Assembly (NCBI GenBank): GCA_038087875.1
Contig: CM075990.1
Coordinates: 310,001 to 374,000, forward strand
Origin: Malacoraja senta
Lineage: Eukaryota
Length of the DNA: 64,000 bases
Direction of reading: 5' to 3'
The position numbers and the translations under genes are program-made. Position 1 is the stretch's first letter; every line of letters starts with the position of its first letter. The notes under the pieces are model-generated. The model saw only the letters and a program-made list of their open reading frames with translations, was not told the origin of the DNA and ran no database searches. Positions 10,315-55,860 of the stretch are shown here, piece by piece.

Positions 10315-10681
10315 TGGATATAAGTTATATATATATATATATATATAACTTATATCCATCTATACATATAGATAGAAGAATAGAATAGAATAGATAGATA
10401 GATAGGTAGAAGAATATAGAAGAAGACTAGACTACATGGGAGAGCTGGTCCCCCAACGCAATATTCCAACTCTCCACCAATTCCAATTTTGGTGGACAGT
10501 GGGGGGGGGGGGCTTTCTGGAGTGCTAGTATGGGTACTGTGGGCTGAAGGGACTGGTTAGTATGGACATTGTGGGCCAAATGGATTCTTGGGGTGGCAGC
10601 TCAGTCACTCAAGCCTGATGTGCTGGCAGCTCACTAACGGCTGGGGGGCTAGCAGTTGACTCACGGCTATTCCTTGAAATT

Positions 10682-11080
10682 CCATTTCAAGCAGGGTGCA
10701 AGGCATTCAAATTCAAATGCAGTTTCCTACCATTTCAAGCAGGGTGCAAGGCCACAAAATTCAGGTGCAGTTTCTTACCACTTCAAGCAGGTTGCAAGGC
10801 CACCGAATTCAAGTGCAGTTTCCTACCACTTCAAGCAGGGTGCAAGGCCACCAAATTCAAGTGCAGTTTCATGTCAATTCAAGCAGGGTGCAAGGCCACT
10901 AAATGCTAGTGCTGTTTCATGCCATTTCAAGCAGGGTGCAAGGCCACAAAATTCAAGTACAGTTTCATACCACTTCAAGCAGGGTGCAAGACAACCAAAT
11001 TGAAATGCAGTTTCATACCATTTCAAGCAGGGTGCAAGGCCACCACATTCAAATGCAGTTTCATACCATTTCAAGTGGGG
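10682..11080. repeat. 48-bp tandem array, about 8 units
   Basis: ttcaagcagggtgcaaggcc-type motif recurs every 48 bp (10685, 10733, 10781 ... 11069). Confidence 0.95.
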
Positions 11081-11496
11081 TGAAACCACCATAAAACCAC
11101 TATAAAACCACTCAAAACACCACATAAACACCACATAAACACCACACTCACAGTTCAGTAGACATTCAGTGTGTTCAGTTGATTCACAGCTCAGACAGAG
11201 TCGTGACCTCTCTCTCCCTGATCTTGCAGAGACTGAACCACACCCACACTTACAGGTTTTACAATCCCCCCCCTCCAACTGGAAGGGGCGTGGCCTTCAT
11301 GGCGTGATTGACAGGAGAGAGATTCTCAACAATTATTTAAACACTAATAACACTTTTATTTTTCAATGATGGGAAGAATCCTCTGCACCTGATGAGTGGC
11401 GAGGAACTGAGTAAGATGGACAAAAATCACAGCCATAAGTGGTAGCATTTTATCTAAAATCAATATTCAGTGCAAACAGGAAGTTGTCAAGTTTCC

Positions 11497-14400
11497 ACCA
11501 ACAGACATTTTTTTTTGCCATGCAGCCTTTCAAAGCAGTTACCACCACCAACAACAGCCTTTTTTTGCAGTGCAGCCTTTAAAAGTAGTTACCACCACCA
11601 ACAAAAGCCTTTTTTTTGCCGTGCAGCCTTATAAAGCATTTACCACAACCAACAACAGCCATTTTTTTTGCAGTGCAGCCATTCAAAGCAGTTACCACCA
11701 CCAACAACAGCCATTTTTTGCAGTGCATCCTGTCAAAGCAGTTACCACCACCAACAACAGACATTTCTTTGCAGTGCAGCCTTTCAAAGCAGGTACCACC
11801 GCCAACAACAGCCATTTATTATTGCAGTGCAACTACCTTTAAAAGCAGTTACCACCACCAACAGCCATTTTTTTTGCAGTGCAGCAGCCTTTCAAAGCAG
11901 TTACCACCACTAACAAAAGCATTTTTTTGGCAGTGCAGCCTTTCAAAGCAGTTACCACCACCAACAACAGCTGTTCATTTTGCAGTGCAGCCTTTCAAAG
12001 CAGTTACCTCCACCAACAACAGCCATTTTTTTTGCAGTGCAGCCTTTCAAAGCAGTTACCACCACCACCAACAGCCATTTTTTTTGCAGGGCAGCTTTTA
12101 AAAGCAGTTACCACCACCAACTGCCGCCATTTTTTTTGCAATGAAGTCTTTCAAAGTATTTACCACCACCAACAGCAATTTTTTTTTGCAATGCAGCCTT
12201 GCAAAGCAGTTACCACCACCAACAGCCATTATTTTTTTGCAGTGCAACCTTTCAAAGCAGTTACCACCAACAACATCATTCTTTCTTTTTTTGCAGTGCA
12301 GCCATTTAAAAGCAGTTAATACCACCAACAAAAGTCTTTTTTTTTTGCAGTGCAGCCTTTTAAAAGCAGTTACCACCACCAACATCAGCCTTTTTTTTTT
12401 ACAGTGCAGCCTTTCAAAGCAGTTACTAACACGAACAGCCATTTTTTTTGCAGTGCAGCCTTTCAAAGCAGTTACCACCACCAACAGCAGCCATTTTTAT
12501 TTGCAGTGCAGCCTTTCAAAGTAGTTACCACCAGCAACAGCCATTTTTTTGCAATGGAGTCTTTCAAAGCAGTTACCACCACCAACAGCCATTCATTTTG
12601 CAGTACAGCCTTTCAAAGCAGTTACCACCACCAACAACAGCCATTTTTTCTTTGCAGTGCGCCTTTCAAAGCAGTGCAGCAGCCTTTCAAAGCAGTTACC
12701 ACCACCAACAAAAGCATTTTTGCCGTGCAGCCTATCAAAGCAGTTACCAGCACCAACAACAGCCATTTTTTCTTTGCAGTGTGCCTTTCAAAGCAGTTAC
12801 CACCAACAACAACAGCCATTTTTTTTGCAGTGCAGCCTTTCAAAGCAGTTACCACCACCAACAACAGCCATTTTTATTTGCAGTGCAGCCTTTCAAAGCA
12901 GTTGCCATCAACAACAGCCATTATTATTTGCAATGCAACATTTTAAAAGCAGTTACCACTACCAACAACAGCCATGTTTTTGCAGTGCAGCTTTTCAAAG
13001 CTGTTACCACCACCAACAACCATTTTTTGCAGTGCAACCTTTCAAAGTTACTACCACCAACAACAGCCATTTCTATTTGCAGTGCAGCCTTTCAAAGTAG
13101 TTACCATCTCCAACAGCCATTTTTTTTTGCAGTGCAGCCATTCAAAGCAGTTACCACCACCAACAAAATTATTTCATTTTTGCAGTGCAGCCTTTTAAAA
13201 GCAGTTACCACCACCAACAACAGCCTTTTTTTTTGAAGTGCTGCCTTTCAAAGCAGTTACCACCACCAACAACAGCCATTTTTTGCAATGCAGCCTTTCA
13301 AAGCAGTTACCACCACCAATAAAAGCCTTTTTTTTCCAGTGCAGCCTATTAAAAGCAGCTACCACCACCAACAACAGCCATTTTTTTTGCAGTGCAGACT
13401 TTCAAAGCAGTTACCATCACCACCAACAGGCATTTTTTTTGCAGTGCAGACTTTCAAAGCAGTTACCACCACCAACAACATCCATTATTTTTTGCAGTGC
13501 AGCCTTTCAAAGCAGTTACCACCACCAACACAATTCTTTTTTTTTGTGGTGCAGCCATTTAAAAGCAGTTACCACCACCAACAGCCATTATTTTTTGCAG
13601 TGCAGCCTTTCAAAGCAGTTACCACCACCAACAACATTCTTTTTTTTTGCGGTGCAGCCATTTAAAAGCAGTTACCACCACTAACAACAGCCTTCTTTTT
13701 TTTGCAGTGCAGGCTTTCAAAGCAGTTACCACCACCAACAACAGCCATGTTTATTTGCAGTGCAACCTTTCTAAGCAGTTACCAGCACCAACAACAGCCA
13801 TTTTTTTTTAGCAGTACAGCCTTTCAAAGCAGTTACCACCACCAACAGCCATTTTTATTTGCAGTGCAGCCTTTCAAAGCGGTTACCGCCACCAACAACA
13901 GCCATTTTTTTGCAGTGCAGCCTTTCAAAGCAGTTATCACCACCAACAACAGCCATTTTTTTTAGCAGTACCGCCTTTCAAAGTAGTTCCCACCACCAAC
14001 AGCCATTTTTATTTGCAGTGCAGCCTTTCAAAGCAGTTACCACCACCAACAACAACCATTTTTTTGCAGTGCAGCCTTTTGAAAGCAGTTACCACCACCA
14101 ACAACAGCCATTTTTATTTGCAGTGTAGCCTTTCAAAGCGGTTACCACCAACAACAACAGCCATTTTTTTGCAGTGCAGCCTTTCAAAGCAGTTACCACC
14201 ACCAACAACAGCCATTTTTTCTTTGCAGTGCGCCTTTCAAAGCAGTGCAGCAGCCTTTCAAAGCAGTTACCACCACCAACAAAAGCATTTTTTGCCGTGC
14301 AGCCTTTCAAAGCAGTTACCACCAACAACAACAGCCATTTTTTTTGTTGCAGTGCAGACTTTGAAAGCAGTTACCACCACCAACAACAACCATTTTTTTT

Positions 14401-17400
14401 GCAGTGCAAACTTTCAAAGCAGTTACTACCAACAACAGCCATTTTTTTTTGCAGTGCAGCCTTTCAAAGCAGTTACCACCACCAACAACAGACATTTTTA
14501 TTTGCAGTGCAGCCTTTCAAAGCAGTTACCATCAACAACAGCCATTATTATTTGCAATGCAACATTTTAAAAGCAGTTACCACCACCAACAACAGCCATT
14601 ATTTTTTGCAATGCAGCCTTTCAAAGCAGATACCACCACCAACATCATTATTTCCTTTTTGCAGTGCAGCCTTTCAAAGCAGTTACCACCACCAACAACA
14701 GCAATTTTTTTGCAGTGCAGCCTTTCAAAGCAGTTACCACCACCACCAACAGCCATTTTTTTGCAGTGCAGCCTTTCAAAGCAGTTACCACCACTAACAA
14801 CAGCCATTTTTTTGCAGTACAGCCTTTCAAAGCAGTTACCACCACCAACAACAGCATTTTTTTTGCAGTGCAGAATTTCAAAGCAGTTACCACCACCACC
14901 AACAACAGCCATTTTTTTGCAGTGCAGCCTTTCAAAGCAGTTACCACCACCAACAACAGCCATTTATTTTTGCAGTGCAGTCTTTCAACGCATTTACCAC
15001 TACCAACAACAGCAATTTTTTTTGCAGTGCAGCCTTTCAAAGCAGTTACCACCACCAACAACAGCAATTTTTTTGCAGTGCAGTCTTTTAAAAGCAGTTA
15101 CCACCACCAACAACAGCCATGTTTTTGCAGTGCAGCTTTTCAAAGCTGTTACCACCACCAACAACCATTTTTTTGCAGTGCAACCTTTCAAAGTTGCTAC
15201 CAGCAACAACAGCCATTTCTATTTGCAGTCCAGCCTTTCAAAGTAGTTACCATCTCCAACAACAGCCATTTTTTTTGTCGTGCAGCCTTTCAAAGCAGTT
15301 ACCACCACCAACAAAATTATTTATTTTTTGCAGTGCAGCCTTTTAAAAGCAGTTACCACCACCAACAACAGCCTTTTTTTTGAAGTGCTGCCTTTCAAAG
15401 CAGTTACCACCACCAACAACAGCCATTTTTTGCAATGCAGCCTTTCAAAGCAGTTACCACCACCAATAAAAGCCTTTTTTTTTCCAGTGCAGCCTATTAA
15501 AAGCAGCTACCACCACCAACAACAGCCATTTTTTTTGCAGTGCAGACTTTCAAAGCAGTTACCATCACCACCAACAGGCATTTTTTTTGCAGTGCAGACT
15601 TTCAAAGCAGTTACCACCACCAACAACATCCATTATTTTTTGCAGTGCAGCCTTTCAAAGCAGTTACCACCACCAACACAATTCTTTTTTTTTGCGGTGC
15701 AGCCATTTAAAAGCAGTTACCACCACCAACAGCCATTATTTTTTGCAGTGCAGCCTTTCAAAGCAGTTACCACCACCAACAACATTCTTTTTTTTGCGGT
15801 GCAGCCATTTAAAAGCAGTTACCACCACTAACAACAGCCTTCTTTTTTTTGCAGTGCAGGCTTTCAAAGCAGTTACCACCACCAACAACAGCCATGTTTA
15901 TTTGCAGTGCAACCTTTCTAAGCAGTTACCAGCACCAACAACAGCCATTTTTTTTTAGCAGTACAGCCTTTCAAAGCAGTTACCACCACCAACAGCCATT
16001 TTTATTTGCAGTGCAGCCTTTCAAAGCGGTTACCGCCACCAACAACAGCCATTTTTTTGCAGTGCAGCCTTTCAAAGCAGTTATCACCACCAACAACAGC
16101 CATTTTTTTTAGCAGTACCGCCTTTCAAAGTAGTTCCCACCACCAACAGCCATTTTTATTTGCAGTGCAGCCTTTCAAAGCAGTTACCACCACCAACAAC
16201 AACCATTTTTTTGCAGTGCAGCCTTTTGAAAGCAGTTACCACCACCAACAACAGCCATTTTTATTTGCAGTGTAGCCTTTCAAAGCAGTTACTACCACCA
16301 ACAACAACAGCCATTTTTTTGCAGTGCAGCCTTTCAAAGCAGTGCAGCAGCCTTTCAAAGCAGTTACCACCACCAACAAAAGCATTTTTTGCCGTGCAGC
16401 CTTTCAAAGCAGTTACCACCAACAACAACAGCCATTTTTTTTGTTGCAGTGCAGACTTTCAAAGCAGTTACCACCACCAACAACAACCATTTTTTTTGCA
16501 GTGCAAACTTTCAAAGCAGTTACTACCACCAACAGCCATTTTTTTTTGCATTGCAGCCTTTCAAAGCAGTTACCACCACCAACAACAGACATTTTTATTT
16601 GCAGTGCAGCCTTTCAAAGCAGTTACCATCAACAACAGCCATTATTATTTGCAATGCAACATTTTAAAAGCAGTTACCACCACCAACAACAGCCATTATT
16701 TTTTGCAATGCAGCCTTTCAAAGCAGATACCACCACCAACATCATTATTTCTTTTTTGCAGTGCAGCCTTTCAAAGCAGTTACCACCACCAACAACAGCA
16801 ATTTTTTTGCAGTGCAGCCTTTCAAAGCAGTTACCACCACCACCAACAGCCATTTTTTTTGCAGTGCAGCCTTTCAAAGCAGTTACCACCACTAACAACA
16901 GCCATTTTTTTGCAGTACAGCCTTTCAAAGCAGTTACCACCACCAACATCAGCCTTTTTTTTGCAGTGCATCCTTTCAAAGCAGTTACCACCACCAACAG
17001 ACATTTTTTTTGTTGCAGTGCAGCCTTTCATAGCAGTTACCACCACCAACAACAGCAATTTTGTTTGCAGTGCAGCCTTTTAAAAGCAGTTACCACCACC
17101 AACAACAGCCATGTTTTTGCAGTGCAGATTTTCAAAGCTGTTACCACCACCAACAACCATTTTTTGCAGTGCAACCTTTCAAAGTTACTACCACCAACAA
17201 CAGCCATTTCTATTTGCAGTGCAGCCTTTCAAAGTAGTTACCATCTCCAACAGCCATTTTTTTTTGCAGTGCAGCCTTTCATAGCAGTTACCACCACCAA
17301 CAAAATTATTTCTTTTTTGCAGTGCAGCCTTTTAAAAGCAGTCACCACCACCAACAACAGACTTTTTTTTTGAAGTGCTGCCTTTCAAAGCAGTTACCAC

Positions 17401-20400
17401 CACCAACAACAGCCATTTTTTGCAGTGCGCCTTTCAAAGCAGTTACTACCACCAACAGCCATTTTTTTTTGCATTGCAGCCTTTCAAACCAGTTACCACC
17501 ACCAACAACAGCCATTTTTATTTGCAGTGCAGCCTTTCAAAGCAGTTACCACCACCAACAAGAGCCTTTTTTTTTGCAGTGCAGCCATTCAAAGCAGTTA
17601 CCACCACCAACAACAGCCATTTATTTTTGCAGTGCAGTCTTTCAACGCATTTACCACTACCAACAACAGCAATTTTTTTTGCAATGCAGCCTTTCAAAGC
17701 AGTTACCACCACCAACGTCAGGCATTTTTTTGCAATGCAACATTTTAAAAGCAGTTACCACCACCAACAACAGCCATTATTTTTTGCAGTGCAGCCTTTC
17801 AAAGCAGATACCACCACCAACAAAATTATTTATTTTTTGCAGTGCAGCCTTTTAAAAGCAGTTACCACCACCAACAACAGCCTTTTTTTTGAAGTGCTGC
17901 CTTTCAAAGCAGTTACCACCACCAACAACAGCCATTTTTTGCAATGCAGCCTTTCAAAGCAGTTATCACCACCAACAACAGCCATTTTTTTAGCAGTACA
18001 GCCTTTCAAAGTAGTTCCCACCACCAACAGCCATTTTTATTTGCAGTGCAGCCTTTCAAAGCAGTTACCACCACCAACAACAACCATTTTTTTGCAGTGC
18101 AGCCTTTTGAAAGCAGTTACCACCACCAACAACAGCCATTTTTATTTGCAGTGCAGCCTTTCAAAGCGGTTACCACCACCAACAACAGCCATTTTTTTGC
18201 AGTGCAGCCTTTCAAAGCAGTTACCACCACCAACAACAGCCATTTTTTCTTTGCAGTGCGCCTTTCAAAGCAGTGCAGCAGCCTTTCAAAGCAGTTACCA
18301 CCACCAACAAAAGCATTTTTTGCCGTGCAGCCTTTCAAAGCAGTTACCACCAACAAAAACAGCCATTTTTTTTGTTGCATTGCAGCCTTTCAAAGCAGTT
18401 ACCACCACCAACAACAGACATTTTTATTTGCAGTGCAGCCTTTCAAAGCAGTTACCATCAACAACAGCCATTATTATTTGCAATGCAACATTTTAAAAGC
18501 AGTTACCACCACCAACAACAGCCATTATTTTTTGCAATGCAGCCTTTCAAAGCAGATACCACCACCAACATCATTATTTCTTTTTTGCAGTGCAGCCTTT
18601 CAAAGCAGTTACCACCACCAACAACAGCAATTTTTTTGCAGTGCAGCCTTTCAAAGCAGTTACCACCACCACCAACAGCCATTTTTTTGCAGTGCAGCCT
18701 TTCAAAGCAGTTACCACCACTAACAACAGCCATTTTTTTGCAGTACAGCCTTTCAAAACAGTTACCACCACCAACATCAGCCTTTTTTTTGCAGTGCATC
18801 CTTTCAAAGCAGTTACCACCACCAACAGACATTTTTTTTGTTGCAGTGCAGCCTTTCATAGCAGTTACCACCACCAACAACAGCAATTTTTTTTGCAGTG
18901 CAGCCTTTTAAAAGCAGTTACCACCACCAACAACAGCCATGTTTTTGCAGTGCAGATTTTCAAAGCTGTTACCACCACCAACAACCATTTTTTGCAGTGC
19001 AACCTTTCAAAGTTACTACCACCAACAACAGCCATTTCTATTTGCAGTCCAGCCTTTCAAAGTAGTTACCATCTCCAACAGCCATTTTTTTTGCAGTGCA
19101 GCCTTTCATAGCAGTTACCACCACCAACAAAATTATTTCTTTTTTGCAGTGCAGCCTTTTAAAAGCAGTTACCACCACCAACAACAGACTTTTTTTTTGA
19201 AGTGCTGCCTTTCAAAGCAGTTACCACCACCAACAACAGCCATTTTTTGCAGTGCGCCTTTCAAAGCAGTTACTACCACCAACAGCCATTTTTTTTGCAT
19301 TGCAGCCTTTCAAACCAGTTACCACCACCAACAACAGCCATTTTTATTTGCAGTGCAGCCTTTCAAAGCAGTTACCACCACCAACAAGAGCCTTTTTTTT
19401 TGCAGTGCAGCCATTCAAAGCAGTTACCACCACCAACAACAGCCATTTATTTTTGCAGTGCAGTCTTTCAACGCATTTACCACTACCAACAACAGCAATT
19501 TTTTTTGCAATGCAGCCTTTCAAAGCAGTTACCACCACCAACATCAGGCATTTTTTTGCAATGCAACATTTTAAAAGCAGTTACCACCACCAACAACAGC
19601 CATTATTTTTTGCAGTGCAGCCTTTCAAAGCAGATACCACCACCAACAAAATTATTTATTTTTTGCAGTGCAGCCTTTTAAAAGCAGTTACCACCACCAA
19701 CAACAGCCATGTTTTTGCAGTGCAGATTTTCAAAGCTGTTACCACCACCAACAACCATTTTTTGCAGTGCAACCTTTCAAAGTTACTACCACCAACAACA
19801 GCCATTTCTATTTGCAGTCCAGCCTTTCAAAGTAGTTACCATCTCCAACAGCCATTTTTTTTGCAGTGCAGCCTTTCATAGCAGTTACCACCACCAACAA
19901 AATTATTTCTTTTTTGCAGTGCAGCCTTTTAAAAGCAGTTACCACCACCAACAACAGACTTTTTTTTTGAAGTGCTGCCTTTCAAAGCAGTTACCACCAC
20001 CAACAACAGCCATTTTTTGCAGTGCGCCTTTCAAAGCAGTTACTACCACCAACAGCCATTTTTTTGCATTGCAGCCTTTCAAACCAGTTACCACCACCAA
20101 CAACAGCCATTTTTATTTGCAGTGCAGCCTTTCAAAGCAGTTACCACCACCAACAAGAGCCTTTTTTTTTGCAGTGCAGCCATTCAAAGCAGTTACCACC
20201 ACCAACAACAGCCATTTATTTTTGCAGTGCAGTCTTTCAACGCATTTACCACTACCAACAACAGCAATTTTTTTTGCAATGCAGCCTTTCAAAGCAGTTA
20301 CCACCACCAACATCAGGCATTTTTTTGCAATGCAACATTTTAAAAGCAGTTACCACCACCAACAACAGCCATTATTTTTTGCAGTGCAGCCTTTCAAAGC

Positions 20401-22772
20401 AGATACCACCACCAACAAAATTATTTATTTTTTGCAGTGCAGCCTTTTAAAAGCAGTTACCACCACCAACAACAGCCTTTTTTTTGAAGTGCTGCCTTTC
20501 AAAGCAGTTACCACCACCAACAACAGCCATTTTTTGCAATGCAGCCTTTCAAGGCAGTTACCACCACCAACAAAAGCCTTTCTTTCCAGTGCAGCCTATT
20601 AAAAGCAGCTACCACCACCAACAACAGCTATTTTTTTTGCAGTGCAGACTTTCAAAGCAGTTACCATCACCACCAACAGGCATTTTTTTTGCATTGCAGA
20701 CTTTCAAAGCAGTTACCACCACCAACAACATCCATTATTTTTTGCAGTGCAGCCTTTCAAAGCAGTTACCACCACCAACAACATTCTTTTTTGCAGTGCA
20801 GCCTTTCAAAGCAGTTACCACCACCAACAACATTCTTTTTTTTTGCGGTGCAGCCATTTAAAAGCAGTTACCACCACTAACAACAGCATTTTTTTTTGCA
20901 GTGCAAGCTTTCAAAGCAGTTACCACCACCAACAACAGCCATGTTTATTTGCAGTGCAACCTTTCTAAGCAGTTACCACCACCAACAACAGCCATTTTTT
21001 TTAGCAGTACAGCCTTTCAAAGCAGTTACCACCACCAACAGCCATTTTTATTTGCAGTGCAGCCTTTCAAAGCGGTTACCACCACCAACAACAGCCATTT
21101 TTTTTTAGCAGTACAGCCTTTCAAAGCAGTTACCATCAACAACAGCCATTATTATTTGCAATGCAACATTTTAAAAGCAGTTACCACCACCAACAACAGC
21201 CATTATTTTTTGCAATGCAGTCTTTCAAAGCAGATACCACCACCAACATCATTATTATTTATTTTTTGCAGTGCAGCCTCTCAAAGCAGTTACCACCACC
21301 AACAACAGCAATTTTTTTGCAGTGCAGCCTTTCAAAGCAGTTACCACCACCACCAACAGCCATTTTTTTGCAGTGCAGCCTTTCAAAGCAGTTACCACCA
21401 CTAACAACAACCATTTTTTTGCAGTGCATCCTTTCAAAGCAGTTACCATCACCAACAGACATTTTTTTTGTTGCAGTGCAGCATTTCATAGCAGTTACCA
21501 CCACCAACAACAGCCATTTTTTTTGCAGTGCAGCCTTTTAAAAGCAGTTACCACCACCAACAACAGCCATGTTTTTGCAGTGCAGCTTTTCTAAGCCGTT
21601 TCCACCACCAACAACCATTTTTTGCAGTGCAACCTTTCAAAGTTACTACCATCAACAACAGCCATTTTTTTTGCAGTGCAGCCTTTCAAAGCAGTTACCA
21701 CCACCAACAACAGCCTTTTTTTTTGCAGTGCAGCCATTCAAAGCAGTTACCACCACCAACAACAGCCATTTTTTTTGCAGTGCAGTCATTCAATGCAGTT
21801 ACCACCACCAACAACAGCAATTTTTTTTGCAATGCAGCCTTTCAAAGCAGTTACCACCACCAACATCAGGCATTTTTTTGCAATGCAACATTTTAAAAGC
21901 AGTTACCACCACCAACAACAGCCATTATTTTTTGCAGTGCAGCCTTTCAAAGCAGATACCACCACCAACAAAATTATTTATTTTTTGCAGTGCAGCCTTT
22001 TAAAAGCAGTTACCACCACCAACAACAGCCTTTTTTTTTGAAGTGCTGCCTTTCAAAGCAGTTACCACCACCAACAACAGCCATTTTTTGCAATGCAGCC
22101 TTTCAAAGCAGTTACCACCACCAACAAAAGCCTTTATTTTCCAGTGCAGCCTATTAAAAGCAGCTACCACCACCAACAACATCCATTATTTTTTGCAGTG
22201 CAGCCTTTCAAAGCAGTTACCACCACCAACAGGCATTTTTTTTGCAGTGCAGCCTTTCAAAGCAGTTACCACCACCAACAACATTCTTTTTTTTGCGGTG
22301 CAGCCATTTAAAAGCAGTTACCACCACAAACAACAGCATTTTTTTTGCAGTGCAGGCTTTCAAAGCAGTTACCACCACCAACAACAGCCATGTTTATTTG
22401 CAGTGCAACCTTTCTAAGCAGTTACCACCACCAACAACAGCCATTTTTTTTAGCAGTACAGCCTTTCAAAGTAGTTCCCACCACCAACAGCCATTTTAAT
22501 TTGCAGTGCAGCCTTTCAAAGCAGTTACCACCACCAACAACAACCATTTTTTTGCAGTGCAGCCTTTTGAAAGCAGTTACCACCACCAACAACAGCCATT
22601 TTTTTGCAGTGCAGCCTTTCAAAGCAGTTACCACCACCTACAACAGCCATTTTTTTTTGCAGTGGAGCCTTTCAAAGCGGTTACCACCACCAACAACAGC
22701 CATTTTTTTTGCAGTGCAACCTTTCAAAGCAGTTACCACCACCAACAACAGCCATTATTTTTGCAGTGCAAC
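11497..22772. repeat. About 52-bp satellite, roughly 210-215 units, with higher-order repeats
   Basis: Consensus GCAGTGCAGCCTTTCAAAGCAGTTACCACCACCAACAACAGCCATTTTTTT(T). Confidence 0.98.
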
Positions 22773-22802
22773 AATATTTTCATTTTCAAACCATGTTAAG
22801 GG

Positions 22803-22930
22803 CACTCACAGTTGAGTAGACATGTGTTCAGTGTTATTCAGAGCTCAGAGAGATGTGACCCTCTCGTTTCTCCATCTTGCCGAGACTGAGTGAGGCACAC
22901 CACTTCCAGGTTTTATAGTCCCTCCCCACA
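22803..22930 (-). promoter_or_regulatory. Predicted Pol II core promoter and first exon in copy C, facing the 52-bp array
   Basis: TATAAAA 22917-22911, Inr TCAGTCT with A at 22887 (30 nt downstream), CAAGATGG, GTGAGT donor at about 22809. Confidence 0.5.
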
Positions 22931-23689
22931 GCAGGGGCAGCAGAGAGAATGGTGAAATTTTTAAAAACATTAATATCTCTCCGATTTTATATCGATGGGG
23001 AAAATCCTCCAGTCCAGTCCAGCGGAAGGGGGCTCTGAGCGAGCTGGCCGTAAATGATGGCCGTAAGGTGCGGCGTTCTCTCAGAAATCATATTGCAGTG
23101 TCTAAAGCGGTCAAGTAATATAGAAATAGACAGGTAGAATAGTAAGATTAAAAGAGAACTTACCAGTTTGAAGTTTGAACTTTATTTTATGAGGAGTTAC
23201 ATTGGTGATTACGTGAAGAAGACCCATCAGGGCGCATGCGCGTCAATCTTCAAAGCAGCGGTATGAAATCACAGATAACAGAAAATATGAAGTAACATGA
23301 GAACTACCATATGACCTTTATGAGAGAGAGGGTTGGGCGTGGCGGGCATGTAATCATCAACGTAACTCCTCATAAAATAAAGTTCAAACTTCAAACTGGT
23401 AAGTTCTCGTTTAATCTTACTATTTTACTTCGGAGTCACTTTAGTGATTCCGTGAAGAGTTCAAAGCTCTGTGATTTTATGCCGCAGATTCAAATCCCGG
23501 CTTCTCACTGCATTGATTGACTTCGGATGAGAAACAATCAATAATTCGTTAAACATGAAATTGAATATCATGCAGTAACAATTGATTTGAATAATCAAAA
23601 CAAACAGTAACCCCTCTATCCCAGCGGAAACTAAACAGAACTTAATACTGAATTTGCAAACAGCCTCTCCCCGATCGGCAATCGGCCGA

Positions 23690-34300: not shown

Positions 34301-34924
34301 AACTGCAGAATCTCCACTCCCTCTTGAGTGCCTATATTCTTTATAATATGACAGAGCAATTTGCAGCACACTACGCATGATCTAACCAAGGTTTGAACCA
34401 GGTCATCGAGTCACAGAGCAAGCCCTGCGGGCCATGCCAACAAGTTAGCCAACTAAGCTGGTCCCATTTGTCTTGTTTGGTCCAAAACTGTCCTGTCCAT
34501 CTACAAGTGCCTTTTAAATGTTGTAATTGTACCTGCCTCTACTACTTCCTCTGGTACCTCTTTCATGTACCTACCACCCTCTATATGAAAAATTAGCTCC
34601 ACATGTCTCTTTTAAATCTTTCCGCTCTTATCTTAAATCTATGCTCTCTACTTTTTAGGCTCTCTTATCATGTGGAAATGACTATGACTATACACCTTTT
34701 ACCTACCCCATATCTATATTACTAAAAGTAAGATCTTGACCGCTTTTGACTCACTGCGATGTGATTTCCGAGAGAACACCGCCACTTACGGCCGTCATTT
34801 TTGGCCACCTCGTTCAGAGCCCCCCTCCGCCGGAGTGGACTGGAGGATTTCTCCCATCGATGAAAAATCTGAGAGATATTAATGTTTTTTTTTTTAATCA
34901 CCATTCTCTCTGCTGCCCCTGCTG

Positions 34925-35057
34925 GTGGGAGGGGGGAGGGACTATAAAACCCAGAAGTGGTGTGCCTCACTCAGTCTCTGCAAGATGGAGGAAACGAGAG
35001 GGTCACGTCTCTCTGAACTCTGAATAACACTGAAAACATGTCTACTCAACTGTGAGT
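34925..35057 (+). promoter_or_regulatory. Predicted Pol II core promoter and first exon, module 1 of copy D
   Basis: G-rich box, TATAAAA 34943, Inr TCAGTCT with A at 34973, CAAGATGG 34981, GTGAGT 35052. Confidence 0.55.
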
Positions 35058-35106
35058 GCCCTTAATGTGGTTTGAAAATGAAAATATAGTTGGTTTGAAG
35101 TAATAA

Positions 35107-36070
35107 GGCAATGCAAATGGTTGTTTGGGGGGTTTTGGGTTGAAGTAAAAATGCACTGCAAATGGTTGTTTGGGGTTTTTGGGTTGAAGTAAAAAGGCAC
35201 TGCAAATGGTTGTTTGGGGGGTTTTGGGTTGAAGTAAAAAGGCACTGAAAATGTTTGTTTGGGGGTTTTGGGTTGAAGTAAAAAGGCACTGCAAATGGTT
35301 GCTTGCGGGGTTTTGGGTTGAAGTAAAAAGGCACTGCAAATGGTTGTTTGGGGGGTTTTGACTTTGAGTAAAAAGGCACTGCAAATGGTTGTTAGGGGGG
35401 GTTTGTGTTGAATTAAAAAGGCACTGCAAATGGTTGTTTGGGGGCTTTTGGGTTGAAGTAAAACGGCACTGCAAATCGTTGTTTGGGGGGTTTTGGGTTG
35501 AAGTGAAAAAGCACTGCAAATGATTGTTTGGGGGTTTTGGGTTGAAGTGAAAAGGCACTGCAAATGGTTGTTTGGGGGGTTTTGGGTTGAAGTGAAAAGG
35601 CACTACAAATGGTTGTTTGGGGGGGGTTTGGGTTGAACTGAAAAGACACTGCAAATGGTTGTTTGGGGGGTTTTGGGTTAAGTGAAAAGGCACTGCAAAT
35701 GGTTGTTTGGGGGGTTTTGGGTTGAAGTGAAAAGGCACTGCAAATGGTTGTTTGGGGGGTTATGGGTTGAAGTGAAAAGGCACTGCAAATGGTTGGTTGG
35801 GGGGTTTTGGGTTGAAGTGAAAAGGCACTGCAAATGGTTGTTTGGGGGGGTTTGGGTTGAAGTGAAAAGGCACTGCAAATGGTTGTTTGGGGGGTTTGGG
35901 GTTGAAGTGAAAGGGCACTGCAAATGGTTGTTTGGGGCGTTTTGGGTTGAAGAGAAAAGGCACTGCAAATGGTTGTTTGGGGCGTTTAGGGTTGAAGTGA
36001 AAAGGCATTGCAAATGGTTGTTTGGGGCGTTTTTGGTTGAAGTGAAAAGGCACTGCAGATGGTTGTTTGT
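35107..36070. repeat. 45-bp tandem array, about 21 units
   Basis: GGCACTGCAAATGGTTGTTTGGGGGGTTTTGGGTTGAAGTGAAAA. Confidence 0.95.
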
Positions 36071-36249
36071 CTAAACTTGACAACTTCCTGTTTGCACTAT
36101 ATTGATTTTAGATTAAACGCTACCACTTACGGCTGTGATTTTTGGCCATCTAACTCGGTCCCCCTCTGCTCATCAGGTGCAGAGGATTCTTCCCATCAAT
36201 GAAAAATAAAAGTGTTATTAGTGTTTAAAAAATGTTGAGAATCTCTCTC

Positions 36250-36408
36250 CTGCCAATCACGCCATGAAGGCCACACCTTTTCTGGTGGGAGGGGCAGGGA
36301 TTATAAAACCCCGAAGTGTGGGTGTCGCTCAGTCTCTGCAAGATGGGGGAGGGAGAGGTCACGACTTTGAATCAATTGAACACACTGAATGTCTACTGAA
36401 CTGTGAGT
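36250..36408 (+). promoter_or_regulatory. Predicted Pol II promoter and first exon, module 2 of copy D
   Basis: CCAAT 36253, G-rich box, TATAAAA 36302, Inr A at 36331, CAAGATGG, GTGAGT 36403. Confidence 0.55.
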
Positions 36409-36449
36409 GTGGTGTTTTGTGTGGTTTTATGGTGGTTTTATGGTGGTTT

Positions 36450-37075
36450 CACCCTGCTTGAAATGGAATGAAACTGCATTTGAATGTGGTGGCCTTGCAC
36501 CCTGCATGAAATGGTATGAAACTGCATTTGAATGTGGTGTCGTTGCACCCTGCATGAAATGGTATGAAACTGCATTTCAATTTGGTGGTCTTGCACCCTC
36601 CTTGAAATGGTATGAAACTACACTTGAATTTGGTGGCCTTGCACCCTGCTTGAAGTGGTATGAAACTGCACTTGAATTTCGTGGCCTTGCACCCTGCTTG
36701 AAGTGGTTGGAAACTGCACTTGAATTCAGTGGCCTTGCACCCTGCTTGAAGTGGTGGGAAACTGAACCTGAATTTGGTGGCCTTGCTCCCTGCTTGAAGT
36801 GGTATGAAACTGCACTTGAATTTGGTGGGCTTGCACCCTGCTTGAAGTGGTTGGAAACTGCACTTGAATTCGATGGCCTTGCACCCTGCTTGAAGTGGTG
36901 GGAAACTGAATCTGAATTTGGTGGCCTAGCACCCTGCTTGAAGTGGTATGAAACTGCACTTGAATTTGGTGGCCTTGCACCCTGTTCGGAGAGTTAAGAA
37001 ACTGCACTTGAATTTGGTGGCCTTGCACCCTGCTTGAAATGGTAGGAAAATGGAATTGAATTTGGTGGCATTTCA
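36450..37075. repeat. 48-bp tandem array, about 13 units (same family as 10682-11080)
   Basis: GCACCCTGCTTGAAGTGGTATGAAACTGCACTTGAATTTGGTGGCCTT. Confidence 0.95.
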
Positions 37076-37481
37076 AGAAATAGCCGTGTCAACTGCCAGC
37101 CCACCACATGTGAGTGAGCTGCCAGCACATCAGGCTTGAGGGACTGAGCTGCCACCCCAAGAATCCATTTGGCGCACAATGTCTATACTAGCCCTCTGGG
37201 GACCTGTAGTCCCTGCAGCCAACAACACCCATACCAGCGCTCCAGAAAGCACCCCCCCCCCACTGGCCACCAATAATTGAATTGGTGGAGAGGTGGAATA
37301 TTGCATCGGGGGACCAGCCCTCCCGTGTGAACGTGGGACCCAACGGGTCTCACTTAGTCTAGTAATTTTATAAATATCTATCAGGTCACCCTCACCTCCT
37401 GCACTCCAGGGTCAAATGTCCCAGTCTATTCAACCTCCCCTTATAGCTCAAGATCGCCAAATCCAGTAACATCCCTGTGAA

Positions 37482-44619: not shown

Positions 44620-45702
44620 TAGAAACATAGAAACATAGAAATTAGGTGCAGGAGTAGGCCATTCGGCCCTTCGAGCCTGCACCGCCATTCAATATGATCA
44701 TGGCTGATCATCCAACTCAGTATCCCGTACCTGCCTTCTCTCCATACCCTCTGATCCCTTTAGCCACAAGGGCCACATCTAACTCCCTCTTAAATATAGC
44801 CAATGAACTGGCCTCGACTACCCTCTGTGGCAGAGAGTTCCAGAGATTCACCACTCTCTGTGTGAAAAAAGTTCTTCTCATCTCGGTTTTAAAGGATTTC
44901 CCCCTTATCCTTAAGCTGTGACCCCTTGTCCTGGACTTCCCCAACATCGGGAGCAATCTTCCTGCATCTAGCCTGTCCAACCCCTTAAGAATTTTGTAAG
45001 TTTCTATAAGATCCCCTCTCAATCTCCTAAATTCTAGAGAGTATAAACCAAGTCTATCCAGTCTTTCTTCATAAGACATTCCTGACATCCCAGGAATCCG
45101 TCTGGTGAACCTTCTCTGCACTCCCTCTATGGCAATAATGTCCTTCCTCAGATTTGGAGACCAAAACTGTACGCAATACTCCAGGTGTGGTCTCACTAAG
45201 ACCCTGTACAACTGCAGTAGAACCTCCCTGCTCCTATACTCAAATCCTTTTGCTATGAAAGCTAACATACCATTCGCTTTCTTCACTGCCTGCTGCACCT
45301 GCATGCCTACTTTCAATGACTGGTGTACCATGACACCCAGGTCTCGCTGCATCTCCCCTTTTCCTAGTCGGCCACCATTTAGATAATAGTCTGCTTTCCT
45401 GTTTTTGCCACCAAAATGGATAACCTCACATTTATCCACATTATACTGCATCTGCCAAACATTTGCCCACTCACCCAGCCTATCCAAGTCACCTTGCAGT
45501 CTCCTAGCATCCTCCTCACAGCTAACACTGCCCCCCAGCTTAGTGTCATCTGCAAACTTGGAGATATTGCCTTCAATTCCCTCATCCAGATCATTAATAT
45601 ATATTGTAAATAGCTGGGGTCCCAGCACTGAGCCTTGCGGCACCCCACTAGTCACTGCCTGCCATTGTGAAAAGGACCCGTTTACTCCTACTCTTTGCTT
45701 CC
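44620..45702 (-). mobile_element. Young 5'-truncated CR1 LINE with uninterrupted ORF2 C-terminus
   Basis: Open ORF 44717-45700 with [25 protein letters not shown]; (TTTCTATG)n tail at 44620-44642. Confidence 0.95.
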
Positions 45703-49266: not shown

Positions 49267-50534
49267 GTCCACACCCTCCATCCCAATGAAAAGGCTTTGG
49301 TCTGGAATGTTAACACTTTGATAGGGAGGTAGTTTAGTTTATTGTCACATGCCCTGAGGTACAGCGAAAAGCCTTTGCTGCATGCTATCCAGGAAGCAGA
49401 AAGACAATACATGATTACAATTGAGCCATTTACAGTGTATAGATACATGATAATGAAATAGCATTTAGTGCAAGGTAAAGTCATCAAAGTCAGACCAAGG
49501 ATAGTCCGAGGGTCACCAAAGAGTTAGATAGTTGTTCAGCACTGCTCTCTGGTTGTGGTTGCTGGACCTGTTGAGATTTTCCAGCATGCCTTGTCATACC
49601 GTCACGTTTGCTTAAATTAAATCAAACTTAAAGCACGTTTCATTGTTATTTCCTTTCCCCGATAACAAAGTGCGAGGAAGGAATCCAGCAAAATGAGCTT
49701 GCCGGAGGAACAGATGGTTTTACAGTGAAGAGAGTTACGGGGGGTGTATTGATTTCTGAAGCAATTGAGTGGTTTAGCAGGAAGATAACACCTCGAGCAT
49801 TCTCATGTGCAGAATGAATTGTGCAATGAAAACTTGGGAAGAACTGAGCCAAGAAGATGCAATCAACAGTATCCAATTATGAATGACAAGTTTTGACATT
49901 TCCTTCAATGATAATGGTCAGCTCTCTCCCCCGACCCTCAATATTACTGAATCGCTCACTTTTAATATTTCAACCACTATCTTTGATTCCGAAGTTTGAG
50001 TCAACCAGGCCAATCAAACTGCAGGCAGGTCATAGCTTCTGCACTCAATATCTCTTTATCGCCACAGGGCACTAGTCAAGAATGTGTCAGAGAATTCTTC
50101 ACTTACCTGGATGTATACATCAACATACAAGAACCTTGCTCTATTCAAGTCAAATCAACCCACTTGTTTAACGCTGGTAGTTGCTTGAACTGAAGTTTCC
50201 ACCCACAACATACTTTGACTGTTATTATGACTTGCTATTGAGGGAGTGCAGCATAGGTTTATGAGGTTAATTCCTGGGACAGCTGGACTGTCATATGTTG
50301 AAAGAATGGAGCGACTGGGCTTAGCTATATTATTAAAAGTCTGATCTTGACCGCTTTTGGCCCACTGTGCTGTGATTTCCGAGAGAACACCGCCACCTAT
50401 GGCCGTCGTTTTTGGCCACCTCGCTCAGAGATCCCCTCCGCCTTCCTGGACCAGAGGATTTTTCTCATCGTTGAAAAATCAGAGATATATTAATGTTTTT
50501 TTTTTAATTGCCATTCTCTTCGCTGCCCCCGCTG

Positions 50535-50661
50535 GCGGCAGGGGGGAGGGACTATAAATCCCGGAAGTGTCGTGCCTCAGTCTCTGCCAGCCCCAGGAAG
50601 TGAGAGGGTCTGCTCTCTGAGCTGCAAATAACACTGAACGCATGTCTAATCCACGGTGAGT
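50535..50661 (+). promoter_or_regulatory. Predicted Pol II promoter and first exon in copy E
   Basis: G-rich box, TATAAAT 50553, ETS-type CCGGAAGT 50561, Inr A at 50579, ACG|GTGAGT 50656. Confidence 0.5.
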
Positions 50662-50674
50662 CCCCCTCGATGTG

Positions 50675-51358
50675 GCTGTAAAGTGGCTGCTGCCAAATGT
50701 TTGCCTTTTTTTTAAAGATTGTTTTCAGAAAATGGATTGGTTGTCAAGTGGCTGCTGCCAAATTGTTTGCCTCGCCTTTTAAAAAGTTTGTGTTCACAAA
50801 ATGAATTTTGGTTGTCAAGTGGCTGCTGCCAAATTGTTTGCCTCGCCTTTTAAAAAGTTTGTGTTCACAAAATGAATTTTGGTTGTCAAGTGGCTGCTGC
50901 CAAATTGTTTGCCTGGCCTTGGTTTTTTTTAAGTTTTTTGTTCACAAATGGATTGGTTGTAAAGTGGCTGCTGCCAAATGGTTAGCCTTGCCTTGGTTTT
51001 TAAAAAGTTTGTGTTCACAAAATGGATTGGTTGTAAAGTGGCTGCTGCCAAATTGTTTGCCTCACCTTTTAAAAAGTTTGTGTTCAGAAAATGGATTGGT
51101 TGTAAAGTGGCTGCTGCCAAATTGTTTGCCTTGCATTTTAAAAAGTTTGTGTTCACAAAATGGATTGGTTGTAAAGTCACTGCTGCCAAATTGTTTGCCT
51201 TGCCATGTAAAAAGTTTGTGTTCACAAAATGGATTGGTTGTAAAGTGGCTGCTGCCAAGTTGTTTGCCTTGCCTTGGTTTTAAAAAGTTTGTGTTCACAA
51301 AATGGATTGATTGTAAAGTGGCTGCTGCAAAATTGTTTGCCTTGCCTTAGTTTTTAAA
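50675..51358. repeat. 69-74-bp tandem array, about 10 units
   Basis: GTTGTAAAGTGGCTGCTGCCAAATTGTTTGCC...TTTTAAAAAGTTTGTGTTCACAAAATGGATTG. Confidence 0.95.
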
Positions 51359-53289
51359 ATCGTTGCAACAGTTTTCAAATGGATAAAGCGTGAATAAACA
51401 TTTTATTCGATCAGGAATGTGTTTAACCCCGCCTCAAAAAAATGTTTTGCACAAATTCTTCAGTGAGTCTGGAGGATTGAGATTTACAAACAAATTACAA
51501 CCGCTCAATCTCTCTATATTAAAATTGTCTCTTTTTGTTATCAACAGCAAATAGCCATCAAGAGCAAGTGAGCAGCAGAACACAACAAGAGACACAACAA
51601 GAAAGAACTTAATAATTATCATCTTTAACATTTAATTTGTTCTTATATTTTAAGAGTAATTCACAATTTAAACTTTAATAAACCCTTTTTACACTTTTCA
51701 TGCCTTTGTGTTCTTCATCACAATGGGAACCTAATAGGCAGGAATGGCTGCTCTGTGGGAGAGCCACTAAGAGTGCATGGGGGGAGGGTTGTGGGGAGAT
51801 GGACTGAATGCGTGGGGGGTGGGGAATGGCAAGGAGCAGAATGGGGGGGGGAATGAAGGGAGGGAGGGGTGACAGGAATGAACTGCCACCACACCAGACA
51901 TGAATGACTGCACTGCCAGACTGCCAGCCCACCAGCCCTGAGTAAGTGAACTGCCAGCCATCCAGCCATGACTCACTGAACTGCCAGCCCAATAATCCAT
52001 TCAGTCCACCCTCTCCTCCTTCTCTCTCACAAAGCCTCTCACCTGTTTTCGGCACAATTTCTGGCAGTTTCTCAGCTGCCAGCCTGCCAGGTCTGAGTGA
52101 CTGTACTGCCAGGCCTCAGTAACTGAACTGCCAGTCCAAGAATCCCTTTTGGCCCACAATGTCCGTACTAGCCCTCTTGAAACCAGACCCTTTGGCCCAC
52201 AACACCCATACTAGCACAACAGAAAGCCCCCACTGGCCAGCAATATTGGAATTGGTGGTGAGGTGGAATATTGCGTTGTGTGACCAGCCCTCCCGTGTGA
52301 TGCTGGGACCCAACGGGTCCCACAGTCTAGTATACACTGGAATTTAGAAGGATGAGTGGCGATCTTATTGAAACATAAAGATTATTAAGGGATTGGACAC
52401 ACTAGAAGCAAGAAACATGTTCCTGATGTTGGCGTAGTGCAGAACCAGTGGCCATAGTTTAAGAATAGGTGTAGGCCATTTAGAACAGAGATGAGGTAAA
52501 TGTTTTCACCCAGAGAGTTGTGAATTGTGGAATTCTCTGCTTCAGAAGGTAGTGGAGGCAATTTCTCTGGATGCTTACAAGAGAGAGTTAGATAGATTTA
52601 AAGATAGCAGAGTCAAGGGGAGAAGGCACGAACTGGGCACTGATTGTGGATGATCAGCCATGATCACAGTGAATGGCGGTGCTGGCTCAAAGGGCCAAAT
52701 GGCCTACTCCTGCACCTATTGTCTGAAATGCTGGAGTAACTCAACGGGACAGACAGCATCTCTGGATAGAAGGAATGGGTGCATTCGGATAGAGACCTTT
52801 CTTCAGACAGAGATTCTCAGTCAGAAAGGACTTGACCTGAAACATCACCCATTCCTTCTATTCGGAGATGCTGCCTGTCCCGCTGAGTTACTCCACCACT
52901 TTGTATCTATCTTTGGTGTAAACCAGCATCTCAGTTCCTTCCTAAACATGCTATGACTGCAGTATTTACTGTCGGGAGCACATATGCCATTATTAAGCTT
53001 TCTTCTGCTTCACAAGCTCGACCACAGGAAGGGCAAGTTGAGCAACTCCTTGGTATTATCATTACCTTCAGATTCTTTTCTCCCAGACTATGATCCACAG
53101 CATTGTGTAGCGTGAGAGCTTCTATCAATATTGACTGGGACTTGCACAATGCTAAGGGTTTAGAAGGGGGCATAATTTGTTATATGTATCAAAGAGGGTT
53201 TCCTGAAACAGTATGTGGATAGTCCCAACCTGAGAAGGGAGCATACCAGACCTTGTGTTGGGTAAACAAGCCTTGCTGGCTTGCAAAGT

Positions 53290-55660
53290 GTTGGGTCCCA
53301 GCATCACACGGGAGGGCAGGTCACCCAACGCATTATTCCACCTATCCACCAATTCCAATATTGCTGGCCAGTGGTGGGGGGGGGGGGGGGGGAGGGGGGA
53401 CTTTCTGTTGCGCTAGTATGGGTGTTGTGGGCTAAAGTTACTGGTTTCCAGAGGGTTAGTATGGACATTGTGGGCCAAATAGATTCTTGGGCTGGCAGCT
53501 CAGTCACTGAGGCCAGGCAGCTCAGTCACTGAGGCCTGGCAGTACAGTCACTCAGACCTGGCAGGCTAGCAGCTGAGAAAATGCCAGAAATTCAGCCCAA
53601 AACAGGTGACAGACTGTGGGAGAGGGTGGACTGAATGGATTAATGGGCTGGCAGTTCAGTCACTTACGGCTGGTGGGCTGGCAGTGCAGTCACTCACACC
53701 TGGTATGCTGGCAGTTCACTCAGTCACCCATCCTCCCTTCACCTCCCCCCAATCTGCTCCTTGCCATTCCCCTCCCCCCCCACGCATTGTGCATCTACCC
53801 GCCAACCTCCCCCCATGCACTCTTAGTGGCTCTCCCACAGAGCAGCCATTTCTGCCCATTAGGTTCCCATTGTGATGAAGAACACACAGGCATCAAAAGT
53901 GTAAAAAAGGATTTATTAAAGTTTAAATGTGAATGACTCTTAAAATATGACAATTTAAATGTTAAAGATGAGAATTATTAAGTTATTTCTTGTTGTGTCT
54001 CTTGTTGTGTTCTGCTGCTCACTGCCTCTTGATGACTATTTCCTGTTGATAAAAAGATAAAATTTTAATATAGATAGATTAGGGCGGTTAAATTTTAAGA
54101 AAGAATGACGTCATCGGCGCCATCTTGCAACTAAGCGAAATCAAAGAATGAGCGGCAATTTTGAAACTAAATACAGTCCTGAACTAATAAAATGTTTATT
54201 CACGCTTTATCCATCCAAAAACTGTTGCAAGCAAGCCCTTAAATGCCAAGCCAATTGGGCAAACACTTTGCAAGCCAACAAAACACACTTTCTGAAAGCC
54301 CTTTAAAAAGCCAAAAATCCAATTGGGCAAACACTTTGTAAGCCAACAAAACACATTTTCTGAAAGCCCCTTTGAAAAGCCCAAAAAGCCAAATGGGCAA
54401 ACACTTTGCAAGCCAACAAAACACGTTTTCTGAGAGCCCTTTAATAGCCAAGCCAATTGGGCAAAACACTTTGCAAGCCAACAAAACACATTTTCTGAAA
54501 GCCCTTTAAAAAGCCAAAACGCCAATTGGGCAAACACTTTGCAAGCCAAAAAAACACGTTTATTGAGAGCCCTTTAATAGCCAAGCCAATTGGGCAAACA
54601 CTTTGCAAGCCAACAAAACACATTTTCTGAAAGCCCTTTGAAAAGCCAAAAAGCCAATTGGGCAAACACTTTGCAAGCCAACAAAACACGTTTTCTGAGA
54701 GCCCTTTAATAGCCAAGCCAATTGGGCAAACACTTTGCAAGCCAACAAAACACATTTTCTGAAAGCCCTTTACAAAGCCAAAACGGCAATTGGGCAAACA
54801 CTTTGCAAGCCAAAAAAACACGTTTATTGAGAGCCCTTTAATAGCCAAGCCAATTGGGCAAACACTTTGCAAGCCAACAAAACACATTTTCTGAAAGCCC
54901 TTTGAAAAGCCAAAAAGCCAATTGGGCAAACACTTTGCAAGCCAACAAAACATGTTTTCTGAGAGCCCTTTAATAGCCAAGCCAATTGGGCAAACACTTT
55001 GCAAGCCAACAAAACACGTTTTCTTAAAGCTCTATAAAAATCCAAAAAGCCATTGGGCATACACTTTGCAAGCCAACAACACACATTTTCTGAAAGCCCT
55101 TTAAAAAGCCAAAAAGCCAAAAAGCCAATTGGGCAAACACTTTGCAAGCCAACAAAACACATTGTCTGAAAGCCCTTTGAAAAGCCAAAAACGAATTGGG
55201 CAAACACTTTGCAAGCCAACAAAACACGTTTTCTGAGAGCCCTTGAATAGCCAAGCCAATTGGGCAAACACTTTGCAAGCCAACAAAACACATTTTGTGA
55301 AAGCCCTTTAAAAAGCCAAAAATCCAATTGGGCCAAACACTTGCAAGCCAATTGGGCAAACACTTTGCAAGCCAACAAAACACATTTTCTGAACGCCCTT
55401 AAAAAAGCCAAAAATGCTAATTGGGCAAACACTTTGCTAGCCAACAAAAACACATTTTCTGAAAGCCCTTTGAAAAGACAAAAAGCCAATTGGGCAAACA
55501 CTTCGCAAGCAGAGAGAATGGACGAATTTTTCTTAAACATTATTATCTCTCTGATTTTTCATCGATGTGAAAAATCCTCCAGTCCAGCCCGGCGGAGGGG
55601 GGGCTCTGAGCGAGGTGGCCAAATATGATGGCCGTAAGTCGCGGCATTCTCTCGGAAATC
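53290..55660 (-). mobile_element. Non-autonomous Helitron-like element, copy F (3' tip broken; 5' end runs into the gap)
   Basis: 53290-54230 is colinear with the reverse complement of copy E 51350-52314; 55510-55660 matches the 5' module of C, D and E. Confidence 0.85.
54230..55510. repeat. 64/68-bp tandem array, about 19 units
   Basis: CAATTGGGCAAACACTTTGCAAGCCAACAAAACAC..TTTCTGA.AGCCCTTT. Confidence 0.95.
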
Positions 55661-55860
55661 NNNNNNNNNNNNNNNNNNNNNNNNNNNNNNNNNNNNNNNN
55701 NNNNNNNNNNNNNNNNNNNNNNNNNNNNNNNNNNNNNNNNNNNNNNNNNNNNNNNNNNNNNNNNNNNNNNNNNNNNNNNNNNNNNNNNNNNNNNNNNNNN
55801 NNNNNNNNNNNNNNNNNNNNNNNNNNNNNNNNNNNNNNNNNNNNNNNNNNNNNNNNNNNN
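55661..55860. other. Assembly gap (200 N)
   Basis: Run of N. Confidence 1.

Follow-up and report, generated by a model that had tools for sequence, protein, structure and literature searches.

HelibatN3 of Myotis bats is a non-autonomous Helitron with TC...CTAG ends that carries a promoter, a short exon, and a splice donor. According to PMC4778049, the promoter was captured from the host gene NUBPL together with six codons, and exon trapping was shown there. The D family of Malacoraja senta, described here, resembles HelibatN3 in these features as far as they are predicted, whereas its cassette, which has a TATA box and an Inr, stands before the family's own RepHel gene and forms tandem stacks with minisatellites behind them; the family is known here from its sequence. 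In C. elegans, non-autonomous copies of Helitron1_CE and its derivatives spread the regulatory sequence by which the element drives its own RepHel, much as presumed here, and this sequence can act on host genes; it consists of heat-shock elements in repetitive clusters and was shown experimentally (PMC6927752). In contrast, the D family carries a predicted core promoter, exon, and donor, with repeats downstream in the predicted intron. Tandem, replaceable 5' promoter modules are also found in L1, in the form of the rodent 5' monomer promoters and of 5'-UTR replacement. L1 is a retrotransposon, and unlike its modules each module of the D family includes a transposition terminus, an exon, and a donor. 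In Heli2Xen and DINE/HINE (as cited in PMC12001565) and in C. elegans HelitronY1 (bioRxiv 10.64898/2026.08.08.743475), the non-autonomous copies consist largely of arrays and disperse them, as here. In the available parts of these accounts, the arrays are not placed between the donor of a RepHel leader and an acceptor, unlike in the lineage B1 described below, and in Heli2Xen, which belongs to Helitron2, both ends carry arrays (PMC12001565). By analogy, the closest systems appear to be HelibatN3 in potential and Helitron1 of C. elegans in origin. A literature search returned no account of the D family or of a TATA/Inr leader in a Helitron; Repbase, Dfam, subscription papers, and supplements lay outside its scope, and the family may be catalogued there.

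The stretch of DNA analysed, hereafter the window, comprises 64,000 nucleotides of contig CM075990.1 (assembly GCA_038087875.1, positions 310,001 to 374,000). A preliminary description had proposed that its minisatellite arrays sit behind a mobile unit of promoter, first exon, and splice donor, and had missed the Helitron termini that frame the elements D, C, E, and F (Table 1). These termini, the A/T target, and thousands of candidate copies bear out the mobility of the unit. At the 3' end of D, a hairpin (37333-37353) with a 9-bp stem lies 5 nt before CTAG (37359-37362), which is followed by T; its folding energy is -13.7 kcal/mol, and 9 of 200 shuffles folded equally well. The flanks of D show no target-site duplication on reading. 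Termini were compared in the best 30 copies of each kind, chosen by likeness and including the window's own copy: a TC start was found at 27 of the 30 D-type loci (24 as A|TC), whose flanks are unrelated, and at 26 of the 30 E-type loci (22 as A|TC), while CTAG|T closes all 30 of the 3'-end loci. An A|TC start and a hairpin with a CTAG|T end are among the Helitron features listed in PMC4778049. With a 5'-TC, a CTRR-3' end with a palindrome, insertion between A and T without target-site duplication or terminal inverted repeats, and a Rep plus PIF1 partner sharing its termini, the D family is almost certainly a Helitron of the canonical Helitron1 type.

Table 1. Positions of the elements, modules, motifs, and arrays. 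Positions are those of the window except where a locus is named.
Feature	Position	Strand	Description
Element D	34713..37362	+	Non-autonomous Helitron between A and T; 5' terminus, then module 1 with array 1, module 2 with array 2, and 3' terminus
D left terminus	34713..34742	+	TC start after flanking A
D module 1 G-rich box	34926..34942	+	Majority letters of modules 1 and 2 agree at 15/16
D module 1 TATA box	34943..34949	+	TATAAAA; left terminus 230 nt away
D module 1 ETS-like site	34950..34958	+	CAGAAGT in D's own copy
D module 1 initiator	34971..34977	+	TCAGTCT; predicted start A 34973, +30 from TATA
D module 1 predicted first exon	34973..35051	+	79 nt; putative 5'-UTR exon of the ancestral RepHel transcript
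D module 1 predicted splice donor	35052..35057	+	GTGAGT (ACT|GTGAGT); G 79 nt after Inr A
D array 1	35090..36069	+	45-nt minisatellite, 21.8 copies; G/T-rich; YAG-poor sense strand
D module 2	36070..36408	+	Presumed older Helitron 5' end without its first ~20 nt
D module 2 motifs	TATAAAA 36302; Inr A 36331 (+29); CAAGATGG 36339; donor 36403 (72 nt)	+	
D array 2	36409..37069	+	11-nt repeats, then 48-nt minisatellite, 12.9 copies
D 3' terminal region	37070..37362	+	Homology with the B1 (RepHel lineage) end, 84% over 232 nt
Element C	10427..23124	-	D's family; left terminus damaged; module 1, 11.3-kb 52-nt array, module 2, 48-nt array; 3' hairpin deleted
C module 1 motifs	TATA 22917; Inr A 22887 (+30); donor 22809	-	
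C module 2 motifs	TGTAAAA 11263; A +29; donor 11151	-	
Element E	50324..52330	+	Apparent internal-deletion derivative of B1; module, 69-nt array, then B1 3' region with hairpin and CTAG
E module motifs	TATAAAT 50553; Inr A +26; donor 50656	+	
Element F	53290..55660	-	B1 derivative; core promoter deleted; array, start of TATA-less second module (~54127), B1 3' region kept
B1 second TATA-less module	L156:6700-6900; L159; window ~54127	L159 and window: -	Repeated CAAGATGGCG and TGACGTCA words; own GTGAGT

Several other features of the window lie outside these elements. A different Helitron 5' end, of a TATA-less type called H2, occupies 9950-10314 on the minus strand, about 110 nt past the 3' end of C, and H2-type ends also lie upstream of several other RepHel loci. 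Two further Helitron 3' ends with hairpin and CTAG, akin to the last 75 nt of D, are found at 3886-3962 and 8459-8530, both on the minus strand; Helitrons often adjoin one another elsewhere in the genome as well (L141, L145, L199, L222). The left terminus of F is hidden by an assembly gap of N at 55661-55860. Two PF00078 reverse-transcriptase fragments, probably LINE remains, lie at 6875-7861 and 44717-45724 on the minus strand; apart from these and one sub-threshold match, the 17 frames scanned gave no host gene in the window. Inverted repeat arms of about 880 nt (57579-58458 and 63121-64000), 92-95% alike and about 4.7 kb apart, reach the window end.

In the consensus Pol II core promoter with a first exon, the TATA box lies about 30 nt ahead of the Inr A, and a 5' splice site follows downstream. 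On re-reading, every motif claimed earlier for D and C was found in its place, and the modules have this geometry. Dinucleotide shuffling (5,000 per module) never reproduced the TATA-Inr-donor order under a strict pattern; under a loose pattern it did so once for one of two modules and never for the other. The two modules of D are homologous (79% over 140 nt in the core, 73% over 107 nt upstream). Since all five module instances in the window are homologous, they are copies of one ancestral module and do not count as independent events. E was said to repeat the arrangement; its order does, whereas its box is TATAAAT instead of TATAAAA and its spacing of +26 falls short of 29-30 nt, owing to a 4-nt deletion in the window's copy, as a longer spacer is kept in most other E copies. 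The word CAAGATGG, at 34981 in module 1 of D, had been taken as a module feature that E lacks. This is true of module 1 (54 of 60 copies) and of E (0 of 29), and fails for most module-2 copies (7 of 66, in a set biased toward the best matches of the window copy). The ETS-like site, a GAAGT-type word that we take to be an ETS site, reads CCGGAAGT in 30 of 60 module 1 copies. F has indeed lost the cassette; the loss is a private deletion, with a junction pattern that occurs at one genome site, F itself, and a promoter-less amplified subfamily resembling F is thus ruled out. In the upstream part of module 2, a TTTTAG preceded by a run of pyrimidines (36110) may be a cryptic acceptor; this and an AATAAA (36205) could terminate a transcript from module 1.

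Candidate copies are numerous in the 1.94-Gb genome, whose remaining repeats seem to resemble those of cartilaginous fishes: 3,145 for module 1, 2,668 for module 2, 3,295 for the 5' part of E, and 3,502 for the 3' end, 40 being scored per query. A degenerate left-terminus pattern has 5,874 exact genome matches and a TATA-ETS-Inr core pattern 1,745, with no match to either control. Among 30 loci sampled by terminus alone, the core is held in 27 when the printout is read by eye, the other three being interrupted, deleted, or lost in an N gap; a script counted an intact TATA in 23 of the 30. A TCAGT-like A stands at +28 to +32 in at least five subfamilies despite differing spacers, the +26 values in that printout being an earlier CTCACT and not the Inr. 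The M3 lineage has lost the ETS-like site, and a deletion removes the donor from one amplified subfamily (L192, L196, L236, L238, L241).

The motifs had been expected to be better conserved than neighbouring bases, and this holds between module lineages and not within families. Between the majority letters of modules 1 and 2, the TATA, ETS, Inr, and donor columns are identical at 33 of 33 positions against 206 of 288 elsewhere (Fisher p=3e-5, a value that overstates conservation because the motif windows were partly picked from the similarity itself; the three module comparisons are also not independent). The 30 loci sampled by terminus alone give a fairer picture. The TATA-Inr spacer is identical at 5 of 10 positions yet keeps its length, and the mid-exon at 9 of 22; the sequence adjacent to the donor (33 of 37) and the G-box are conserved too. 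For module 1 against E, a pair too similar for the test, no preference for the motifs was seen (p=0.21). Among individual copies, preferential conservation is absent in module 2 (p=0.32) and E (p=1.0) and weak in module 1 (1.6% vs 2.5% change, p=0.015), while CpG columns show 9-13% change. As the motifs decay like their neighbours within families, selection would have acted on master elements and not on the inserted copies.

RepHel-coding relatives were sought with the PF14214 profile, which has 112 matches in the genome, and the upstream DNA of 42 RepHel loci was read (the ten top Pfam loci, and 32 others with 10 kb upstream). Lineage A has an intact frame with PF14214 and PIF1. Its members (L043-L062, for example G000:C3619, C2570, and C4719) have open frames of up to 1,766 aa, a Rep region 99% identical, coding 69-nt units repeated in tandem close to the N terminus, and neighbours arranged head to tail; the lineage looks recently active. 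As the source of the cassette it was rejected: all ten top loci share the 3' hairpin and CTAG alone, with no module upstream. The H2-type RepHel lineages likewise do without this module, and its absence from both counts against reading the cassette as a native promoter.

Nine of the 42 loci have a recognisable leader and form lineage B1; L205 and L214, which break off before the leader, were left unclassed. In seven of the nine, the terminus followed by a TATA module opens the copy in RepHel orientation; this module is E-like in L156, L159, and L203, module-1-like in L167 and L204, and of a more diverged type, M3, in L157 and L164. Of the exceptions, L161 lacks its 5' part, and in L158 a family copy in inverted orientation intervenes. 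The order in B1 is terminus, TATA-Inr-exon-GTGAGT, minisatellite, a second and TATA-less module with a donor, a (TG)n tract of up to about 1 kb, CAG, and the RepHel ATG. The CAG is present in 9 of 9 copies with the ATG 46 nt on in 8, and the donor of the second module is GTGAGT in 6 of the 8 copies where this module was found. Words of the second module are YY1-, CRE-, and ETS-like, labels that we assign presumptively. Its homology to the exon of the TATA module was not established, with 16 of 500 shuffles scoring equally high. Because this second promoter-like module lies closer to the ATG, the TATA module may be secondary. After the minisatellite, four copies have a TGCAACAG-like site with AATAAA. 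The first candidate acceptor is followed by an AATAAA, which counts against the native-promoter reading. In E, candidate acceptors end at 51371 and 51463. Downstream of the helicase, 6 of 8 B1 stretches end in the 3' region of E, and the other two are filled by insertions within the 10 kb read. All B1 copies examined are broken; they carry PF14214, and their helicase matches that of lineage A in pieces at 51-81%. E and F align piecewise to the 5' and 3' parts of B1, an alignment by which they are internal deletions of it, and D matches the B1 leader of L167 at 82% over 372 nt. Mean pairwise identities of 90.7% for B1 Rep copies and 91.0% for module-2 copies indicate similar ages.

Since RepHel-coding relatives carry the same block before the transposase gene, the TATA-Inr-donor block is likely a Pol II promoter and non-coding first exon native to the Helitron family, and the arrays would lie within the predicted first intron. 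In an autonomous B1 element, transcription would start about 260 nt inside the left end, and an exon of about 80 nt would be spliced over the minisatellite, into or past the TATA-less module with its own GTGAGT and (TG)n intron, to the CAG that precedes the RepHel ATG by 46 nt. Masters producing transposase would have been under selection to preserve the TATA, the Inr, their spacing, and the donor, whereas the intron would have tolerated repeat expansions that arose separately in each subfamily. Internal deletions would then have removed RepHel and joined the leader to the 3' end, giving derivatives copied in trans, and the inserted copies would decay neutrally. Some intact copies may serve as promoter and exon traps for host genes, and the example of HelibatN3 makes splicing into exons of the host plausible.

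How the leader came to B1 is a separate matter. The cassette could be a host gene promoter and first exon captured by a Helitron and later placed ahead of RepHel, which is compatible with promoter function and concerns its origin. Other RepHel lineages have different leaders, so B1 must have acquired its own at some time, and promoter capture is documented in PMC4778049. Against capture, the module is continuous with the left terminus, and the 30 pattern-selected cores examined contained no host source, all being in Helitron-family context; a diverged host parent could be missed, because the searches rank best matches only. We consider such an origin improbable.

RNA reads were compared with a natural copy (L092:1460-2360) whose element lies on the minus strand and has both modules and an array of three units. 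Of four runs, X24 is a raw polyA run from another organism, 6% of which was read, with reads mostly 85-95% alike; 1,379 of its 7,335,232 records were placed on the copy. If the usual stranded convention applies, sense exceeds antisense in exon 1 (202 v 55, 92 v 25, 85 v 41) and in exon 2 (63 v 35, 73 v 27, 65 v 24), while antisense reads predominate ahead of module 2 (for example, sense 50 v antisense 111). Sense depth over the TATA of module 1 (216) is close to that downstream of the Inr (202), which indicates that the main reads run through the TATA box. In these fragmented RNA-seq reads of another organism, there is no site, the Inr included, where many molecules begin. Split reads, which had been expected from the donors, and piles of loose ends are absent at either donor among the 15 of 27 joints and 24 of 377 loose ends listed from X24, so that these reads lend donor use no support, and no joint at the cryptic acceptor at 36110 is among those listed; a deletion in the reference copy cuts E-type reads of X24 short of the donor. 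Contigs of X1, X5, and X7 indicate the presence of the family only, X1 probably being DNA. The listing of sequencing runs named no RNA run as containing the sequence; 17 of its rows were guessed to be RNA, with shares below 0.2.

The missing start and splice in the X24 reads would suit the idea that the motifs do not work as a promoter and persist as subterminal sequence because RepHel binds there or because modules recombine with one another, as would the conservation of the donor-adjacent bases and the G-box. Such a constraint does not account well for conservation that is patchy, falling on the motifs and sparing the intervening spacer, or for a motif order that strict shuffling never reproduced. 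The +28 to +32 spacing is also kept in five subfamilies with different spacers, and the module lies upstream of CAG and the RepHel ATG. We therefore give this idea a slim chance.

Under the preferred reading, that of a native promoter and first exon, the arrays are most likely passengers of an intron and not the product of the cassette. Array units vary by subfamily (45, 48, 52, and 66-69 nt, and TG), and lengths range from about 130 nt to 11 kb. In 13 of 13 arrays, YAG on the sense strand is below the composition expectation (3 against 34 expected in array 1 of D), and all 13 are skewed to G over C; the low YAG fits an intron, although the arrays are related and repetitive and so not independent. 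The array of C (11495-22770) is 11.3 kb long, with 217 units of 52 nt in long near-identical blocks; its antisense strand has 721 YAG, many after T runs, and thus resembles a row of splice acceptors in the antisense direction. A palindromic stretch at 52736-52892 scores 41 bits to Rfam MIR2118 on both strands, against a gathering score of 85, and is probably a small inverted-repeat element. Of the earlier idea of a unit that makes satellite RNA as an intron, the mobility and the intron-like position of the array hold, whereas a free-standing satellite-RNA unit does not, the cassette being a Helitron 5' leader that stands upstream of RepHel in copies of the autonomous type. That such a unit was selected to transcribe satellite RNA with its own function, as a small RNA or lncRNA host, is very improbable: an array does stand behind every module and family RNA occurs in a polyA library, but units and lengths differ between subfamilies, copies decay neutrally, and a miRNA or structured RNA was rejected, as the folding of five arrays did not surpass that of shuffles (z -1.2 to +1.0) and no Rfam family matched the arrays in 34500-56000.

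The stacking of modules can be read from their ends. The alignment of module 2 with module 1 starts near position 22, as it would for a 5' end that has lost its tip. Leaders like module 2 with a full terminus exist, and internal termini occur in 6 of 30 terminus matches, directly behind the array of the upstream module; from these we infer that stacking proceeds by the addition of new 5' ends. Module 2 would then be an older 5' end overlaid by a newer one, placed before the older element by 3'-end bypass or nested insertion. Bypass of the 3' end is documented for Helitrons (PMC4778049).

A promoter could further have been kept in masters without transposase for a role in cis, in which transcription that starts about 260 nt inside and runs outward from the left end would underwind the AT-rich terminus and so allow RepHel to nick it. 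The basis for this role is that Helitron donors must be double-stranded (PMC5876387) and that transcription-driven negative supercoiling may open the left end, a suggestion made in PMC4778049. If each new 5' end needs its own promoter, the role would explain the stacking, the survival of TATA and Inr in copies without the donor, and the tendency of Helitrons to carry promoters. The proposal is tentative and rather doubtful; if true, a by-product would be the scattering of potential promoters and exon traps over the genome, with at least 1,745 TATA-ETS-Inr cores intact.

Much is known of the termini and transposases of Helitrons, whereas native promoters have rarely been mapped, and the D family offers a clear candidate. 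Its leaders appear to be replaced and stacked by 5'-end addition, and its predicted leader intron would be a place where Helitron minisatellites can grow. The family is also a natural test of the supercoiling suggestion made in PMC4778049. Finally, its thousands of copies could have given promoters and donors to host genes, as HelibatN3 has in bats.
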